Shown here one piece after another: positions 43,307 through 51,582 of a DNA stretch of 64,000 bases. The stretch is from Desulfatiglandales bacterium (GTDB lineage Bacteria > Desulfobacterota > DSM-4660 > Desulfatiglandales > Desulfatiglandaceae). Location of the stretch: NCBI GenBank assembly GCA_963662465.1, contig OY759599.1, positions 3,168,001 to 3,232,000 of the forward strand, given 5' to 3'. Numbering within the stretch: position 1 is the first letter of the stretch; every line of letters starts with the position of its first letter. Below the pieces are notes generated by a model. It saw nothing but the letters and a program-made list of their open reading frames with translations, was not told the DNA's origin and made no database searches. Made by a program: the position numbers and the translations under genes.

Positions 43307-46300
43307 ATGTCGCTCTTTCAAAAATCGGTAATCAAGAAATATCTGGCCAACATTCCCCAAGAGGAAATTGCAGCTTCTTACGGAACATTCAAAGAAAAAT
43401 ACTCACCTGCTAAAATTGACGAGATAAAACGAATAAAAGAGGAAGAGTATCAAGATGGTTTCCTTAGAGATATTTTTGTCAGCGTCCTCGGCTACACTCT
43501 TAAGCCTGATGATGGCTATGATCTATCTCGTGAATTCAAAAACCAATCTGACAGCAAGAAGGCTGATGGAGCTATTTTAAAAAATGGGAAAGCCATTGCT
43601 GTAATAGAGCTGAAATCGAACAAAACAAAAAGCTTAAAAAGTATTACAGAACAAGCATTCAACTACAAAAACAATCAGCCTGAATGTAAATACGTTGTCA
43701 CGTCAAATTTCCGGAAATTACGGTTTTATATAGATTATGCTGGTGAATATGAAGAATTCAACTTGTTCAATATAGGAATAGAAGATTTTCAGTTGTTGTA
43801 TTTGATTTTGAACAAAAACAATCTTCTTGCCGATATCCCGATCAAACTCAAAAAAGAAAGCATTTACCATGAACAAGACGTATCAAACCGACTTTACAAA
43901 GAATATTCTGTTTTCAAAAAGGACCTTTTCCAGAATCTAACAAATAATAACCCCGAAAACGACAAGCTCACCCTATTTAAAAAATCACAAAAATTGATTG
44001 ACCGTTTTTTATTTATCTTTTTCGCAGAAGATAGAGGCTTACTTCCGCCTAATTCCATTGACCGTATTATCGAAAGATTTAACATTTTGAAAGACGAAGA
44101 TTCTTACAAGCCACTTTATGATATCTATAAACAATATTTTGGTTACATGAATATTGGACGTAAGGGGAAAATGCCAAATGATGATATCCCGGAATACAAT
44201 GGGGGTTTATTTGCTCCTGATGTAGTATTGGATGCTCTTATAATTGACGATTCTGTTTTGATTAACGACTTACAAAAATTTTCTGCTTATGATTTTAATA
44301 CAGAAGTTGACGTTAATGTACTTGGTCACATATTCGAACACTCCCTATCTGAAATTGAAGAAATTACGTCAAAGTTAGAAGGAAAAACAACCAACAAGAA
44401 TAGGAGTAAACGCAAAAAGGATGGCGTTTTTTATACTCCCAGTTACATTACACAGTACATTGTTGAAAATACGGTGGGGACACTTTGTGAAGAAAAACGC
44501 AAAGCGCTTGATCTTCTTGAGATTGAAATTCATGAAAGTCATCATAATAAATCTGGAAAATTATCAGCAAAGGGAAAGGACCTACAACAGAAACTTGAAA
44601 ACTATAAACAATGGTTGTTGTCATTAAGAATTCTTGACCCGGCTTGCGGTAGCGGCGCGTTTCTGAATCAGGCACTTAGTTTTCTTATAGATGAACATAA
44701 ACTGATTACAGAGTTTCAAACTGACTTGCAAAAAGGGCAAATTTCTCTTTTTAATATTGAGAACCACATTTTGGAAAACAACTTATACGGAGTTGATATT
44801 AATGAAGAAAGCGTTGAGATTACCAAGCTTTCACTTTGGTTACGTACAGCAAACAGAAAACGAAAACTTTCAAACTTGAGCAGCAATATTAGATGCGGAA
44901 ATTCATTGATAGATGATCCTAAAATTGCCGGAAAGAATGCTTTTAAATGGGATGGTGATTTTCCTGATATTATGAAAGAAGGGGGGTTTGATGTTATTAT
45001 TGGAAATCCCCCATATGTTCGCCAGGAATTGTTGGCACCTTATAAAACATACTTTGAAAAAAATTATCAATGCTATTCAGGAACAGCCGATCTCTTTTCA
45101 TATTTCTATGAAAAATCTTTGGTTCTGCTAAAAGAGTCAGGATATTTTGGTTTTATTTCAAATACATTTGCAAAAACAACTGGAGCAGCTGCAAAACTTC
45201 GTCATTTCTTAAAAAATAACAGCAGATTTATTTCTATTGCAGATTTTTCAGGTCAGAAAATATTTGAAGGAATTACCACCTATCCGATCATTCCGATATT
45301 AAAAAAAGAAAAATCATTTGGCAGATTCAATTACCTAAAAGTAAAAGAAAAAGATTTGCTGACGCTTAGTTATGCTATAGTACAAAATTCAATAGTTGTT
45401 GAGCAGTCTTTGTTAAAGGACGAATCTTGGAGTTTTGAATCTCAAACAAAACAAAACTTAAAAGAGAAAATTAAGGCAAATAAAACAGTCCGAGAAATTT
45501 TCGGAAAGAGCTATTACGGTATAAAAACCGGCTTAAATGTAGCATTTATTATTTCAGGTGATAAACGGAATGAAATAATTGCAAAGAATCCAAAAGAATC
45601 TGACATTATTAAACCGTTTATTGAAGGTAAGGACTTGAATAAGTGGACATGCCATGATGTTGGTAAATGGCTTATACTGTTTCCAAAAGGTTGGACTTCA
45701 ACTATTTCTGGTTGCAAAAATGAGCAAGAAGCATGGAAATATATTGAAAATGAATTTCCTGGGGTTGCAGGACATTTGTTAGATTATAAAGAAAAAGCAG
45801 TTCGACGGTATGACAAAGGAGAATTTTGGTGGGAACTGAGAGCTTGTAATTACTATGATTACTTTAATTCGAAAAAAATTACTTGGCCTAATTTACAATT
45901 TTCCAACAAATTTTCCTATGATGATAATGGATTTTACATCAATGCCCCATCTGTGATTCTTCCGACAGGCAGCAAAGTTTTACTCTGCATTATTAATTCA
46001 AAACTGGCATGGTTCTTTTTTAAAGATGTATGTGTAATGAGAAGCGGAGGATATGTTGAAGTAAAACCCCAATATTTTGAACAATTCCCTGTACACCTTC
46101 CTATTGATGAAAAGCCATTAAATGAAAAAGCAGACATCATACTCATGAAAAGTAAAGAACTTTATGAACTGAAAACTGATTTCCTCAATTTTTTTAAAAG
46201 CGAATTAGAGCCTGAAAAAATTACCAACAAACTGGAAAATTGGTATGAGCTTGATTGGGATCCGTTTAAGAAAGAAATGATAAAATGCAAAGTCAAAGAG

Positions 46301-46471
46301 TTAAGTCTGAAAGAACGCAAAGAATGGCAAGACTATTTTATCGAGCATAAGGAAAAAGCTAATAAACTTAAATCAATAATTACTGCTACCGACAAACAAA
46401 TAGACCAACTGGTTTACAAACTATACAACCTGAACGACGACGAAATCAAAATCGTAAATGGAGAAACATGA
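43307..46471 (+). CDS. type IIG restriction-modification fusion (Eco57I/TaqI-like N6-adenine MTase plus REase)
   Basis: KADG...IELK nuclease motif, YNGGLF, GVFYTP, ILDPACGSGAFL, IGNPPY, TaqI-C-like region. Confidence 0.92.
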   Translation: MSLFQKSVIKKYLANIPQEEIAASYGTFKEKYSPAKIDEIKRIKEEEYQDGFLRDIFVSVLGYTLKPDDGYDLSREFKNQSDSKKADGAILKNGKAIAVIELKSNKTKSLKSITEQAFNYKNNQPECKYVVTSNFRKLRFYIDYAGEYEEFNLFNIGIEDFQLLYLILNKNNLLADIPIKLKKESIYHEQDVSNRLYKEYSVFKKDLFQNLTNNNPENDKLTLFKKSQKLIDRFLFIFFAEDRGLLPPNSIDRIIERFNILKDEDSYKPLYDIYKQYFGYMNIGRKGKMPNDDIPEYNGGLFAPDVVLDALIIDDSVLINDLQKFSAYDFNTEVDVNVLGHIFEHSLSEIEEITSKLEGKTTNKNRSKRKKDGVFYTPSYITQYIVENTVGTLCEEKRKALDLLEIEIHESHHNKSGKLSAKGKDLQQKLENYKQWLLSLRILDPACGSGAFLNQALSFLIDEHKLITEFQTDLQKGQISLFNIENHILENNLYGVDINEESVEITKLSLWLRTANRKRKLSNLSSNIRCGNSLIDDPKIAGKNAFKWDGDFPDIMKEGGFDVIIGNPPYVRQELLAPYKTYFEKNYQCYSGTADLFSYFYEKSLVLLKESGYFGFISNTFAKTTGAAAKLRHFLKNNSRFISIADFSGQKIFEGITTYPIIPILKKEKSFGRFNYLKVKEKDLLTLSYAIVQNSIVVEQSLLKDESWSFESQTKQNLKEKIKANKTVREIFGKSYYGIKTGLNVAFIISGDKRNEIIAKNPKESDIIKPFIEGKDLNKWTCHDVGKWLILFPKGWTSTISGCKNEQEAWKYIENEFPGVAGHLLDYKEKAVRRYDKGEFWWELRACNYYDYFNSKKITWPNLQFSNKFSYDDNGFYINAPSVILPTGSKVLLCIINSKLAWFFFKDVCVMRSGGYVEVKPQYFEQFPVHLPIDEKPLNEKADIILMKSKELYELKTDFLNFFKSELEPEKITNKLENWYELDWDPFKKEMIKCKVKELSLKERKEWQDYFIEHKEKANKLKSIITATDKQIDQLVYKLYNLNDDEIKIVNGET

Positions 46472-46556: not shown

Positions 46557-47201
46557 GTCGCGCCGAGGAAAGCTCGGCGTATCTTGCAAGGTGAAAGTCC
46601 CTGTCGGGAGGAAATTCAGTAATGGCTTTCTGTAAGGGTTAGCCACCCACCCGTATCGAGCCTTGGACCCATGGCGGAGTTGTTCAGTCTGTCAGGTGTA
46701 GGACACCGGCATTCATACGCCGGTTGGAAACGAGCCGCGCTCAGTGAGGCGGGGCATAAGTCGGAGGACTCACCCCGCCGAACGGCTTGAACAGCGAACA
46801 AGATGGGTTAAGCGTAGGCAGAGTATCCTGTAGGCCGCAGGGGTGATCGCGCACCCTGAAGAGCTGGTACAGCTTCGAAATAGCAATTGCGGACGCCGAG
46901 GGTTTCAACGTTCACCGAAGGCAACACAGAAGCATCCGTTATGGCGAGGATGTGGAGGTCCGCCGGAGTCCTCAGGCCGTGGCATGCAGGAAGAGATACG
47001 CCGTAGAACTCGGGAAGCCCCAAAGGCTCCAGGAAGTTTATTTCACACTGACGGTAAGGTAAAGGAACAGTGGTTCACTACACAACCGAAATGCTGAAAG
47101 GAACAACCGGGTGGGAGGTAAATCGGACATCCGATGGCCCTCTATACGCCGACGGGGTGTCTTATCAGGCATACTACTCAGCGGTGGGGAAAGCCCACTA
47201 C

Positions 47202-48899
47202 ATGGGGAAGGACCTGACGGAAGTACGCAGCCTGCAAAGGAAACTCGTACCGGACAATGTAGGGCTGGAACAATATGAGCCAACCTCACTGCAGGGAATA
47301 GCCATTAAGGCAGAAGTTGATGGAAAACACCGTTTTCAAGACCTTTACCGGTGTCTGAATGCCGGATTCCTCCATGCTTGCTGGAAAGACCTGAATAAGG
47401 ACGCAGGCAGTGGTGTGGACAAAGTGACGGCCGAGGCCTACGAAGAAAATCTGGGGGCCAACATCGCGTCACTGGCGGAGCGATTGAAAACCAAACGTTA
47501 CCGTGCCAAATTGGTACGCAGAAGTTACATCCCCAAAGAAAACGGTAAACAACGCCCCTTGGGCATTCCGGCCCTTGAAGACCGGTTGGTTCAACTGGCA
47601 TGCGCCAAACTCCTGACAGCCATATATGAAGCCGACTTTCTGGATATCAGCTATGGTTACAGGCCCAACCGAAGCGCAAAGGATGCAGTCAATGACTTGC
47701 GCTTTGAACTTCAGTTTGGGACATATGGTTACGTCGTCGAGGCCGACATCAAAGGCTTTTTCGATCATATGGACCATGACTGGCTCTTGCGAATGCTCAA
47801 GGAAAGAATTGATGATGCGCCGTTTTTAAACCTGATCCAAAAATGGCTCAAAGCCGGCATTCTGGACACGGACGGTAAGATTATCCATCCGGAAAGCGGC
47901 ACTCCCCAAGGCGGGTTATGCAAAGCTTTGCATAAGCCTCCTTATGCCAAGTTGCCGATTATGCAAAGTAAACCGCTAAAGCTACCAGATTTCCAACACC
48001 TTCACTGAGTTTACTTTGCATAATATCACGGGTATCTCAAACTTGAAATCCAATTAAACGATGCAGCATCCTTGGTTTATTTTGGATAAAATGATCTGGT
48101 TTTTTTCCGACAAATGATTTTGTGAGCTTTTCGCTCAGTCATCATTAGCAAAGATTATGCTAAGTAAATCAAAAAGAAACCCTTGAATTCCAATGCGTTT
48201 TATGGCTTACTTTGCATAATTACTTTCTTTGCATAAGGGGGTATCGTATCGCCGGTTTTGGCAAATGTTTACCTGCATTTTGCCCTAGACTTATGGTTTG
48301 AAAAGATGGTGAAGCCCCACTGTAAAGGGGCCGCCATGATCATCCGGTACGCAGACGATTTTGTCTGCGCTTTTCAGTACAAGGTAGAGGCGAAAGGGTT
48401 TTTCGACGTACTGCCTGTAAGGCTGGAGAAGTTCGGTCTCAGTGTAGCGCCTGAGAAAACCGCCATGATGCGGTTCAGCCGCTTTGATCCGACCATGCGC
48501 AGGCGAATTGTCTTTTTGGGTTTTGAGACCTACTGGACCTATGACAAACAGGGAAAGGTGAGAGTCATGCAGCGCACCGCTCGCAAAAAGTTACAAGGTG
48601 CATGCAGGCGCATCAAGGAATGGGTGAAGGAAAACCGTCATTTGAAGGGGATCGCGTACATAAAGGCGCTCAACCGCAAACTGCGCGGACATTACAATTA
48701 TTACAGCGTGGTGGGAAACGCCAATTCGTTATGGCGTTTTTACCGATGGGCGGTAGATTGTTCGTTTAAGTGGCTGAACCGAAGAGGGGGAAAGCGTAAA
48801 AGCTTCACTTGGAAGGTGTTCCACCGGGCCTTAGATCGCCTGGGGATTGTTAAACCGAAGCTGCCGACGGCCCCACAGCCACGGAAAGTGTTTTGCTGA
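47202..48899 (+). pseudogene. ltrA: group II intron reverse transcriptase/maturase, interrupted at PQGG
   Basis: GVDK, IPKENGKQRPLGIP, SYGYRP, ADIKGFFD, GTPQGG | IVSPVLANVYLH, RYADD, FLGF, LRGHYNYY; both halves are in the same frame. Confidence 0.9.
47916..48236. mobile_element. 321-bp non-coding insertion with RIT-like/tyrosine-recombinase binding-site architecture
   Basis: termini ttatgcaaag / ctttgcataa, eight copies of the motif, flanked by 6-bp ggcggg and gggggt. Confidence 0.8.
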
Positions 48900-49927: not shown

Positions 49928-50518
49928 ATGAACCAGCGATTTTATCTGCTGAAAATACGACTACTTGATATCGAGCCTGCAATCTGGCGTCGTTTTGTGG
50001 TGCCCGCCAGCATTACATTGGACCGTATGCACGATGTCATCCAGATTGTCATGGGCTGGAACGACAGCCATCTGCACGAATTCACGATTGGAAAAAAACG
50101 CTATACCGAATATCCAGAATCCAAAGAAGACGGACTGGTATGCGGCAGATACCGGATCGGGGATCTGATCAAACAGAAAGGCCGCACCTTTCATTATCTG
50201 TATGACTTTGGTGACAGCTGGGAGCACGAACTTGTTCTTGAAGAAAGTCGCTATTTCAATCCGGAATTGAGAACTGAACTGGCCTGTCTTGAAGGCGAAC
50301 GTGCCTGTCCGCCAGAAGATGTAGGTGGTGCGCCCGGTTATTATGAATTCTGCAAAGCACTGAAGGACCCGAGTCATGAAGAGCATGAAAGCTATATGGA
50401 ATGGTCCGGTGGTGACTACGACAGTGCAGGTTTTGATGCCGATGCCGTTTACTGGGAGCTGATAAAATACCTCCGCTGGTCCCGAGACAGATATCAAAAC
50501 TGGGAAGTAACAGAATGA
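49928..50518 (+). CDS. plasmid pRiA4b ORF-3 family protein
   Basis: IWRR..VP..ITL..MH..IQ..MGW.DSHLHEF, YDFGDSWEH, CPPEDVGG. Confidence 0.9.
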   Translation: MNQRFYLLKIRLLDIEPAIWRRFVVPASITLDRMHDVIQIVMGWNDSHLHEFTIGKKRYTEYPESKEDGLVCGRYRIGDLIKQKGRTFHYLYDFGDSWEHELVLEESRYFNPELRTELACLEGERACPPEDVGGAPGYYEFCKALKDPSHEEHESYMEWSGGDYDSAGFDADAVYWELIKYLRWSRDRYQNWEVTE

Positions 50519-51582
50519 AAAAGGGTAAAGACAAAAGAATACAGAAGCCCGGAAAAAAAGAGACATCCATTGTCCGGTCCTCGGCTGCTGAGTACCTGAC
50601 ATTTGTCGCGGCATGCGGTAAAGGAGGCGTTGAGGCAGTTTATGCAGATGAAAATATCTGGCTGACCCAAAAAATGATGGGCGTTCTCTACGATGTCGAG
50701 ACGCATACCATTAACTATCACTTGAAAAAGGTGTTTACTGATAGTGAGTTGGAAGAGGATTCAGTTATTCGAAATTTTCGAATAACTGCCGCAGATGGTA
50801 AAAATTACAATACTAAACATTACAATCTTTCGGCTATCATCGCTGTAGGCTACAAGGTCAACTCAGAACGTGCCGTGCAGTTCCGTAAATGGGCGACAAC
50901 GATTATTCAGGAGTTCACCATCAAAGGCTACACAATGGATGATGAGCGTCTAAAGAATAACGGTTCTGTCCTTGGCAAACAATATTTTGAAGAGCAATTG
51001 CAACGTATCCGGGAAATTCGTCTGAGTGAGCGTAAGTTCTATCAGAAAATTACCGATATCTATGCCTCGTCCATTGATTATGATATATCGGCTCAAGCCA
51101 CGAAGCGTTTTTTTGCGACGGTACAAAACAAGCTGCATTGGGCAATCCATGGCCAGACGGCTGCGGAAATGATCGTAGACCGTGCGGACCACAAAAAAGA
51201 TAATATGGGGCTGACCACCTGGAAAGACGCTCCAAAAGGTAAAATTCAAAAGTTCGATGTCAGTGTGGCCAAAAACTATTTGACCGAAAATGAAATGGCG
51301 CAATTGCAGCGGTTGGTCTCTGCCTATCTGGACGTTGCGGAAGATATGGCGCTACGGCAGATCCCGATGACGATGCAAGATTGGGAAAAACGCCTCAACC
51401 GGTTCATCGAAGCGACAGACCGGAAAATTCTGCAGGACGCAGGAAAAGTCACAGCAGAAATTGCCAAGGCCCATGCCGAAAGTGAATTTGAAAGATACCG
51501 CATCATTCAGGATCGCCTCTTTGAAAGTGACTTCGACCGGATGATCAAGCAGTTGGAACAGAAAAATGAGGATAAAGAATAG
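50515..51582 (+). CDS. rhuM: RhuM family protein
   Basis: IWLTQK.M, YNL.AIIAVGYKVNS.RA.QFR.WA, IREIRLSERKFYQK, VQNKLHWA.HG.TAAE. Confidence 0.9.
   Translation: MKKGKDKRIQKPGKKETSIVRSSAAEYLTFVAACGKGGVEAVYADENIWLTQKMMGVLYDVETHTINYHLKKVFTDSELEEDSVIRNFRITAADGKNYNTKHYNLSAIIAVGYKVNSERAVQFRKWATTIIQEFTIKGYTMDDERLKNNGSVLGKQYFEEQLQRIREIRLSERKFYQKITDIYASSIDYDISAQATKRFFATVQNKLHWAIHGQTAAEMIVDRADHKKDNMGLTTWKDAPKGKIQKFDVSVAKNYLTENEMAQLQRLVSAYLDVAEDMALRQIPMTMQDWEKRLNRFIEATDRKILQDAGKVTAEIAKAHAESEFERYRIIQDRLFESDFDRMIKQLEQKNEDKE

Follow-up and report, generated by a model that had tools for sequence, protein, structure and literature searches.

The question raised by the 64-kb window analysed here (the whole stretch of 64,000 nucleotides from contig OY759599.1 of a Desulfatiglandales bacterium, whose genome is closed and consists of one contig of 8.16 Mb) is what kind of DNA has split the reverse transcriptase (RT) gene of a group II intron, and whether this insert regulates the intron or parasitizes it. 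RIT (recombinase-in-trio) elements, which carry the gene trio ritA, ritB, and ritC, are common in bacteria. Our analysis indicated that the 321-bp insert is a non-autonomous, internally deleted derivative of such an element, hereafter a mini-RIT, and we assign this reading a probability of about 0.85. The RT frame reads GTPQ GG (ggcggg, 47910-47915), is interrupted by the 321 bp (47916-48236), and resumes as GG IVSP (gggggt atc gta tcg ccg, from 48237), as the initial annotation of this DNA had described. The upstream reading frame is open as far as the insert (ORF table), continues inside it as QGGLCKALHKPPYAK..., and meets a stop codon at 48006-48008, 31 codons in. Both RT halves match the NCBIfam group II RT/maturase model; the score of the N-terminal half against TIGR04416 (group II intron RT/maturase; E 1.4e-64, 218.5 bits) stays below the 300 bits required of a whole protein, as only half of one is scored here. 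Since the RT/maturase is cut in two, this intron copy can no longer produce its own protein.

In the description of the insert, B and B' denote the target flanks, T a 6-bp hexamer that forms a pair of Gly-Gly codons (GGNGGN), PAL two arms placed back to back, and T' a hexamer that is usually the reverse complement of a T. The layout is then B - T - PAL - T' - body - T - B', and the net insertion relative to an empty site amounts to 327 bp (321 bp plus one hexamer). The arm is the 10-mer TTATGCAAAG, which was recovered at all eight places named in the initial annotation, six of them exact and two with one mismatch (TTATGCCAAG at 47942 and TTATGCTAAG at 48155). With up to one mismatch allowed, the insert holds 8 of the 11 matches in the window, where shuffles expect 5.47 per window. 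The other structures proposed from the sequence, namely the 20-bp palindrome, an arm-6-arm core, paired sites with 7-bp spacing, and an inner inverted site at each end, were also present: each end of the body has two direct arms with a 17-bp step (7-bp gap), and one inverted arm lies about 55 bp further inward. In sequence comparison, the segment at 47926-47951 has the arm-6-arm form of a tyrosine-recombinase core site (inverted arms, 6-8 bp spacer).

The evidence that carries the mini-RIT reading comes from relatives of the insert. A scan for the 20-mer PAL with one genome per species yielded at least 117 loci in many phyla (L numbers below; genomes are given G numbers), and 80 PAL loci were taken with 3-kb flanks for ORF analysis; the counts of PAL loci given here and below are those among the matches listed. 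Three consecutive ORFs of one homology cluster lay beside PAL in 28 of the 80 loci, and Pfam Phage_integrase was matched by every ORF tested from PAL loci (12/12). The first ORF of the trio (RitA) has 411-423 aa, the second (RitB) is without a recognisable SAM-like domain, and the third (RitC) is Xer-like. Between the ends of L163, L164, L019, L045, and L058, the ritABC genes lie next to each other on one strand. The first two of these loci (genomes G061 and G062) hold complete elements, ~3.5 kb long, that occupy PQGG and share the junctions of the window insert. In the full-length relatives at PQGG, the three genes are adjacent and overlapping.

The window insert itself contains no ORF with recombinase similarity, so it is not an autonomous RIT. 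Its positions 22-159 match the ritC-distal end of the G061 element (G061:C22:254835-254969) at 83%, its positions 1-158 match G062:C1:2289981-2290137 at 83%, and its positions 198-321 match the ritA-proximal end at 86% (G061, L077 2871-2994) and 80% (G062), with the G061 match ending beside the ritA ATG at L077 2869. Of the autonomous form, the insert retains the two ends (ritC-distal, ~135 bp; ritA-proximal, ~125 bp), each with three TTATGCAAAG arms, and all coding sequence is gone. Since both ends are homologous to the ends of ritABC elements, the insert is an internal-deletion derivative. The genomes G061 and G062 also carry minis of ~320 bp at PQGG (L134, L165-L167), and the autonomous elements (L163, L164) and these minis all read CCNCAR-GGNGGN-PAL-T'-body-GGNGGN-xxSP; homologous termini, insertion site, and junction layout are thus common to the mini-RITs and their autonomous relatives. 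The initial annotation had proposed a non-autonomous mini-RIT aimed at PQGG, for which it expected the same ends at PQGG in other RT genes, some of them enclosing tyrosine recombinase genes; these ends were found at PQGG both in this genome and in other phyla, and some of the copies enclose three such genes.

The gene content of the relatives also bears on an alternative origin, an ordinary miniature inverted-repeat transposable element (MITE) derived from an insertion sequence (IS) with a DDE transposase and having 10-bp terminal inverted repeats and a 6-bp target-site duplication. The insert resembles such an element in being short, gene-less, and multi-copy, with perfect 10-bp terminal inverted repeats and similar flanking hexamers. 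However, in the full-length relatives, whose ends are homologous to those of the insert, the enclosed genes are three tyrosine recombinases and no others, and a third, inverted hexamer together with PAL lies inside the left junction. The features of the locus are listed in Table 1.

Table 1. Features of the host intron, the interrupted RT gene, and the mini-RIT, with positions in the window.
Feature	Position	Strand	Evidence or remarks
Group II intron RNA, domains D1-D4, 5' part of the host intron	46620..46978	+	Rfam RF02005 group-II-D1D4-6, 96.8 bits, E 2.7e-27
Intron RT, N-terminal half up to ...GTPQGG	47070..47915	+	Pfam RVT_1 profile positions 1-123 of 205
Left hexamer T_left = GGCGGG, Gly-Gly codons	47910..47915	+	
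PAL, perfect 20-bp palindrome TTATGCAAAG-CTTTGCATAA, predicted recombinase-binding arms back to back	47916..47935	.	Arm motifs 47916+, 47926-
Arm-6-arm site CTTTGCATAA-N6-TTATGCCAAG, T' between the arms	47926-47951		
Internal hexamer T' = GCCTCC (reverse complement GGAGGC, also a Gly-Gly pair)	47936..47941	+	
Segment homologous to the ritC-distal end of autonomous RITs	47937..48074	+	DNA match to G061, G062
Mini-RIT body, 295 bp, 10-bp terminal inverted repeats	47942..48236	.	Arm motifs 47942+, 47959+, 48014- / 48155+, 48210-, 48227-
Segment homologous to the ritA-proximal end, immediately before the ritA start codon	48113..48236	-	ritA would have read leftwards
Right hexamer T_right = GGGGGT, Gly-Gly codons native to the target	48237..48242	+	Empty allele CCCCAA GGGGGT ATC (joint 47907->48235)
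RT C-terminal half and maturase domain	48237..48899	+	Pfam RVT_1 positions 122-204 and GIIM; open to stop codon

Analysis of the whole genome demonstrated a narrow choice of target. BLAST detected eight copies of the insert, seven full-length and one truncated, all of which interrupt group II RT genes at the PQGG Gly-Gly codons. The genome has at least 32 intron RT genes, and among the sites whose alignment reaches the PQGG position 7 of 32 are filled; the filled genes represent at least three RT families with only ~37% protein identity between them. Empty sites in five paralogous introns read CCGCAA GGCGGG ATT. The exact 10-mer TTATGCAAAG occurs 61 times genome-wide, 47 times within the eight copies and 14 times as singletons, compared with ~16 expected by chance (both strands). 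For the 12-mer pattern CCNCARGGNGGN, 216 matches were found in the genome, and occupied ones made up 6 of the 18 in RT context and 0 of the 198 outside it; the seventh occupied RT site reads AGCGGG and lies outside this pattern. Since none of the non-RT look-alikes is occupied, the element reads more than the 12-mer, and the same strictness argues against the DDE-derived MITE.

A comparable picture was obtained from the 28 RT-flank loci, in which the RVT_1 profile is interrupted at positions 121-125. The RitA proteins of PQGG-site elements, which come from Gammaproteobacteria, Clostridia, Chlamydiota, and Desulfobacterota, are 55-73% identical to RitA of L163, whereas those of other lineages are 26-39% identical to it. 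This split of RitA identity by target site suggests that target choice is inherited within the recombinase lineage, and, as far as the compared loci indicate, insertions of the present RIT lineage are confined to one place, the PQGG codon pair in the RT genes of group II introns.

The hexamers on the two sides of the insert provided information on where the copies had come from. In the window copy, the left hexamer, the reverse complement of T', and the right hexamer are GGCGGG, GGAGGC, and GGGGGT. The native hexamer is GGGGGT, according to an empty allele from public run X3 described below, and GGCGGG is the hexamer of another RT family's sites in this genome; the left hexamer was therefore probably acquired at a donor site and is not the native one. 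The copy at 3338476 has GGCGGC on the left and GGCGGG (native) on the right, and the copy at 4989421 has GGCGGG on the left and GGCGGC on the right. In G062, the right hexamer is GGAGGT at the sites in RT family X (L164, L166, L167) and GGAGGC at the site in family Y (L165), and the left hexamer is GGAGGC at the X sites L164 and L167 and GGAGGT at the Y site L165. Thus, all six informative copies (6/6) have the native hexamer on the right and, on the left, a hexamer matching that of another site. This pattern is deduced from static copies and fits the carry-over of a 6-bp donor flank.

Since the left hexamer is foreign and the right one native, the pair is not a target-site duplication. The initial annotation had named random insertion sites and DDE-type duplications as outcomes that would speak against it; both were looked for and neither was seen, and a DDE-derived MITE can hardly be sustained. 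The internal hexamer points the same way as the flanking ones. T' is GCCTCC in the window and CCCGCC at 4989421, so that 2 of 6 positions differ despite identical 295-bp bodies, which indicates that hexamers change through exchange and not through slow mutation; flanking hexamers, too, are swapped between copies with identical bodies. T' can be read as GGNGGN in 7/7 junctions of this genome and in 35/44 foreign junctions, with many wobble variants (T' is non-coding), and it may well be a copy of a former target, a view that these readings fit.

Comparison of the junctions demonstrated that the palindrome and the body behave differently. PAL directly follows a CCNCARGGN-type 12-mer, on the RT-upstream side, in 39 PQGG-type junctions, and it directly precedes GGNGGN in two further instances (the second PAL of L028, and L110), both of which are body-less. 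The hexamers flanking PAL are perfectly complementary in 49 of 117 PAL instances and have at most one mismatch in 73 of 117; the commonest non-zero length of perfect palindrome extension beyond PAL is exactly 6 bp (32/117), with no extension in 42. By a hand count, which left out L034, L057, and L071 because their only hit lies more than 300 bp away, 14 loci have PAL beside the ritA end and 20 beside the ritC end. In the Desulfatiglandales genome, the 293-bp body at 292786, once reverse-complemented, agrees at every position (100%) with those of the copies at 3346612 and 3350296, which occupy the equivalent site in genes of the same RT family. Judging by these junctions, the body can lie either way relative to PAL and the target, and PAL keeps its side.

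The T-PAL-T'-body-T layout was also found in two other RIT families of this genome, family 2 with TTATGCCGC arms and family 3 with AAATCCAAAC arms. Family 2 has intact ritABC trios at 1582304-1585610, 2491275-2494580, and 7140208-7143552 and an interrupted copy at 4393497-4401535 (G000:C1); its palindrome is TTATGCCGC(TC/GA)GCGGCATAA and its hexamer CATCTG, and its copies lie at the same point of a repeated gene in both orientations. One of them has TATCTG on the left, CAGATA as T', and CATCTG on the right, i.e., the donor-hexamer pattern occurs here too. Family 3 is present at G000:C1:281930-285430 and 7046328-7051182 (the second interrupted), with the palindrome AAATCCAAACGTTTGGATTT and the hexamer CGCAGC. 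A further recombinase trio, at 3491454, is without a visible PAL.

The body of the window copy is identical over 295/295 positions to that at 4989421, which lies in a different RT family. Bodies that are 100% identical in two RT families suggest recent movement and lend indirect support to a putative mobilization in trans by a cognate RitABC. A different explanation for the number of copies would be passive spread, in which one ancient insertion was multiplied by intron retrohoming in trans, duplication, or gene conversion. This would account for the four filled IISP-family introns that have 98-99% identical flanks and are distinct from the five empty ones, and for the copies at 3346612 and 3350296, which have identical bodies and lie 3.7 kb apart. 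However, bodies that are 98-100% identical occur in three RT families sharing only ~37% protein identity, introns with 99% identical flanks carry three body subfamilies (80-85% identical) in both orientations, and left hexamers are swapped between families. This discordance between flanks and inserts refutes passive spread as the sole explanation; it is likely for a few copies and, as an account of the whole set, quite improbable.

The initial annotation had left two roles for the insert, that of a parasite of a parasite and that of an excisable switch. According to the latter, a host or RIT recombinase would turn the intron RT on and off by excision or inversion, and the insert would be retained for that purpose. 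By sequence logic, the RT would regain an in-frame Gly-Gly if the two flanking hexamers recombined, no matter which of them remained, and both body orientations were indeed found. Possible products of such events were sought in public runs among assembled contigs (Logan), which cannot reveal rare forms. One contig of metagenome run X3 has the same RT without the 327 bp and reads CCCCAA GGGGGT ATC; it departs from the window RT at 1 of 230 nt on the upstream side and at 3 of 73 nt on the downstream side. This near-identical empty allele is what a switch would produce, but it may equally be the ancestral state. The 327-bp skip seen in runs X1, X2, and X4 belongs to a ~9% diverged contig and represents an intact paralog. 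No inverted or excised form of the window copy was seen among the assembled contigs of the public runs, so the search for excised or restored alleles suggested by the initial annotation yielded nothing beyond the X3 allele; since contigs are blind to rare forms, the absence of such joints says nothing against excision.

Further observations were difficult to reconcile with a switch. No cognate recombinase is present in the genome, and the RT is broken in both body orientations: the upstream RT frame hits a stop codon inside the insert, and inversion would therefore switch nothing. Body-less relics in other genomes consist of a 26-bp T-PAL in L110 (within an RT gene) and L018 and of a 52-bp double-PAL scar in L028. 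Scars of these kinds would put the gene out of frame, which leaves the switch without support. In addition, sister lineages cut other genes at fixed profile positions, as would be expected of a parasite more than of a regulator: the IS66 transposase, the IS91 Y2 (Y2_Tnp) transposase (profile position 174), IS21 IstB (104), the C-terminal domain of the Mu transposase, a phage-type integrase (133), and an N6/N4 DNA methylase were interrupted. Thus, the parasite half of the original proposal stood and is the better fit, whereas the excisable switch did not hold up, and we consider it very unlikely.

Several observations concern these relics and sister lineages. L018 reads tggccg-PAL-tggccg, L110 reads TGCGGG-PAL-GGAGGA within the RT PQGG site, and L028 and L104 are double PALs; body-less relics look like footprints of body loss and may serve as preferred docking sites. 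The sister lineages with the identical 20-bp PAL and other end arms are represented by L047, L081, and L126; by L054, L079, L083, and L128; by L052; by L086; by L111; and by L106. Other RIT lineages (L025, L021, L065, L098, L114) also cut RT genes close to the same point of the RVT_1 profile (121-137), with the different hexamers ACAAGG and TATAGG and with PAL downstream; the RTs of L065 and L098 continue after the junction as IGNYTSQMFAN.

Returning to the mini-RIT reading, the arrangement of arms and hexamers allows a route of movement to be outlined. Rit recombinases supplied in trans would bind the 10-bp arms, and strand exchange would occur at or within the 6-bp hexamer, as in other tyrosine-recombinase core sites. 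The excised form would contain the donor's right hexamer and PAL-T', and its junction would comprise two mirror-image core sites (arm-T-arm and arm-T'-arm) within a ~52-bp palindrome; integration via one core or the other would place the body in either orientation. The position of the donor hexamer on a constant side would point to a strand-biased exchange involving one strand pair and completed by replication.

A more specific model, which we offer tentatively and regard as somewhat doubtful, is that RITs move via a folded or mirror-image double core site: the ~52-bp circle junction would fold into one complete site, a single strand would be exchanged with the target, and the event would be completed by replication. 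Integron attC and CTX-phage attP(+) (Xer) are folded single-strand recombination sites. The likeness to them would lie in the simple Xer-like tyrosine recombinases, in the complete arm-spacer-arm site that a folded palindrome would give, and in the one-strand exchange with replication, which would explain the constant side of the donor hexamer. Unlike these systems, RITs bring their own three recombinases, and the likeness is a mechanistic analogy only. In DNA folding, the segment 47900-47975 gave a hairpin of -13.5 kcal/mol (z -2.9), weakened by two T/T' mismatches; the left-junction hairpin is modestly stable and alone is no evidence of a single-stranded form. If the folded-site model were correct, PAL would always lie on the same side of the target and the body in either orientation, and T', T_left, and T_right would record, like a brief travel log, which sites were targeted earlier and which is the present one. 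The three recombinases would then divide among themselves the PAL arms, the element-end arms, and the target arms, and the choice of target, i.e., conserved codons in the genes of other mobile elements, would be a heritable and retargetable trait of the trio.

A number of points weigh against the mini-RIT reading or the route of movement outlined for it. Neither a circle nor an excision was seen among the assembled contigs, and binding and cleavage by the recombinases are predicted from sequence. No autonomous RIT with TTATGCAAAG arms was found in this genome by the exact 10-mer, by clusters with up to 2 mismatches, by TTATG...CATAA palindromes, or by tblastn with Rit proteins; the RIT trios that tblastn detected in it are ~24-40% identical to the query trios, some of which are of the PQGG type. 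This sits uneasily with identical bodies in different RT families, and, in the absence of a cognate ritABC, the mini-RITs are probably stranded in this genome now. The T' of the window matches no RT hexamer in this genome and differs from that of its 100% identical sister, which would be accounted for solely by an exchange that was not seen. The six hexamer cases may not all be independent events. Finally, within one family the flanks of the filled introns are 99% identical and, given also the short distance between the copies at 3346612 and 3350296, some copies may have multiplied passively along with the intron.

The mini-RIT is real and well supported, and RIT elements themselves are known. 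In passages of Van Houdt et al. (2012; PMC3414803), the ritA-ritB-ritC order is given as the recombinase-in-trio arrangement, and passages of Janssen et al. (2010; PMC2864759) report RITs that interrupt IS66 tnpA and radC. The insert resembles these elements in that its full-length relatives at the same site have three adjacent, overlapping recombinase genes and inverted-repeat ends and that several copies occur per genome, and differs in that the window copy is gene-less and measures 321 bp versus ~3.5 kb. The T-PAL-T' junction is not described for RITs in the passages of PMC3414803 and PMC2864759; imperfect palindromic repeats of 47 and 51 bp at the ends of RITs are reported in part of PMC5737581, where hairpin intermediates were suspected. 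Neither miniature RITs nor homing to the PQGG codons of RT genes turned up in the literature searched; Ricker et al. (2013), Van Houdt et al. (2009), or supplements could hold such a description.

In Table 1 of a 2023 article (PMC10214605), the target specificity and mode of movement of RITs are entered as not tested. The same article reports, in the part considered here, a 6-bp donor-flank carry-over for Tn554 and SEs, in which several tyrosine recombinases likewise drive site-specific movement and no true target duplication is formed; the left hexamers of the six informative copies would correspond to this travelling donor flank. Unlike RITs, Tn554 and SEs have other protein sets (TnpA/B/C; IntA/Tfp/IntB/Srap) and are long elements with cargo, and in that part of the article no 20-bp back-to-back arm palindrome or internal inverted hexamer is described for them. 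Bacterial MITEs share with the mini-RIT the short, gene-less, multi-copy form with terminal inverted repeats and, presumably, movement in trans by a full-length relative. In contrast to them, the parent here is a tyrosine-recombinase element and not a DDE transposon, no true target duplication is present, and nearly all copies lie at one codon pair of one gene family.

The value of the locus lies mainly in making RIT mechanics testable, as the junctions of the insert give clues to how RIT elements move. The sequence rules that can be tested are the fixed insertion point at the PQGG Gly-Gly codons, the 10-bp arm, the 6-bp crossover hexamer, the one-sided 20-bp arm pair, the body in either orientation, and the donor hexamer carried to the new site. 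A gene-less substrate of 321 bp with all sites would be an ideal test piece for ritABC supplied in trans. Moreover, the locus is a case of one family of mobile elements that has specialised in disabling a second, and the spread of introns and ISs in such genomes may be held back as a result.

Additional observations were made on individual copies and contigs. The truncated copy, L006 (G000:C1:2365498-2365664), retains only element positions 22-187 and is joined to RT sequence ending near residue 235; the deletion took the PQGG region, PAL, and one end. A BLAST search of 60 related genomes, many of them incomplete, found the 321 bp in none at the DNA level (0/60). Contigs of run X2 with loose ends at window positions 47941-47943 run on beyond PAL-GCCTCC into sequence that precedes another RT, namely the flank known from family X of G062. 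Since no site with this flank exists in the present genome, run X2 must contain a further strain or site; the left hexamer of that site, GGAGGC, is the reverse complement of the window's T'. A contig of run X4, from a related sample, contains a mini-RIT variant in which 44 bp of the middle (window 48056-48101) are replaced by 7 bp. In L041, L044, L064, and L119, the order is B-T-PAL-T'-reverse(B), i.e., the target flank is repeated in inverted form and long palindromes result. These four loci are either real inverted duplications or fold-back assembly artefacts, and they were set aside as evidence of hairpin intermediates because metagenome assemblers can fold back at palindromes.

A scan of 47800-48350 for consensus promoters and terminators gave 0 and 0, and thus no sign of an outward promoter. 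Upstream of the intron, a 1054-aa restriction-modification enzyme of the Eco57I/MmeI type is encoded at 43307-46471 and ends 150 bp ahead of it. Further neighbours are a PRiA4_ORF3-like protein (49928-50518) and a RhuM-family protein (50515-51582), and the surroundings of the intron look like a mobile or defence island.

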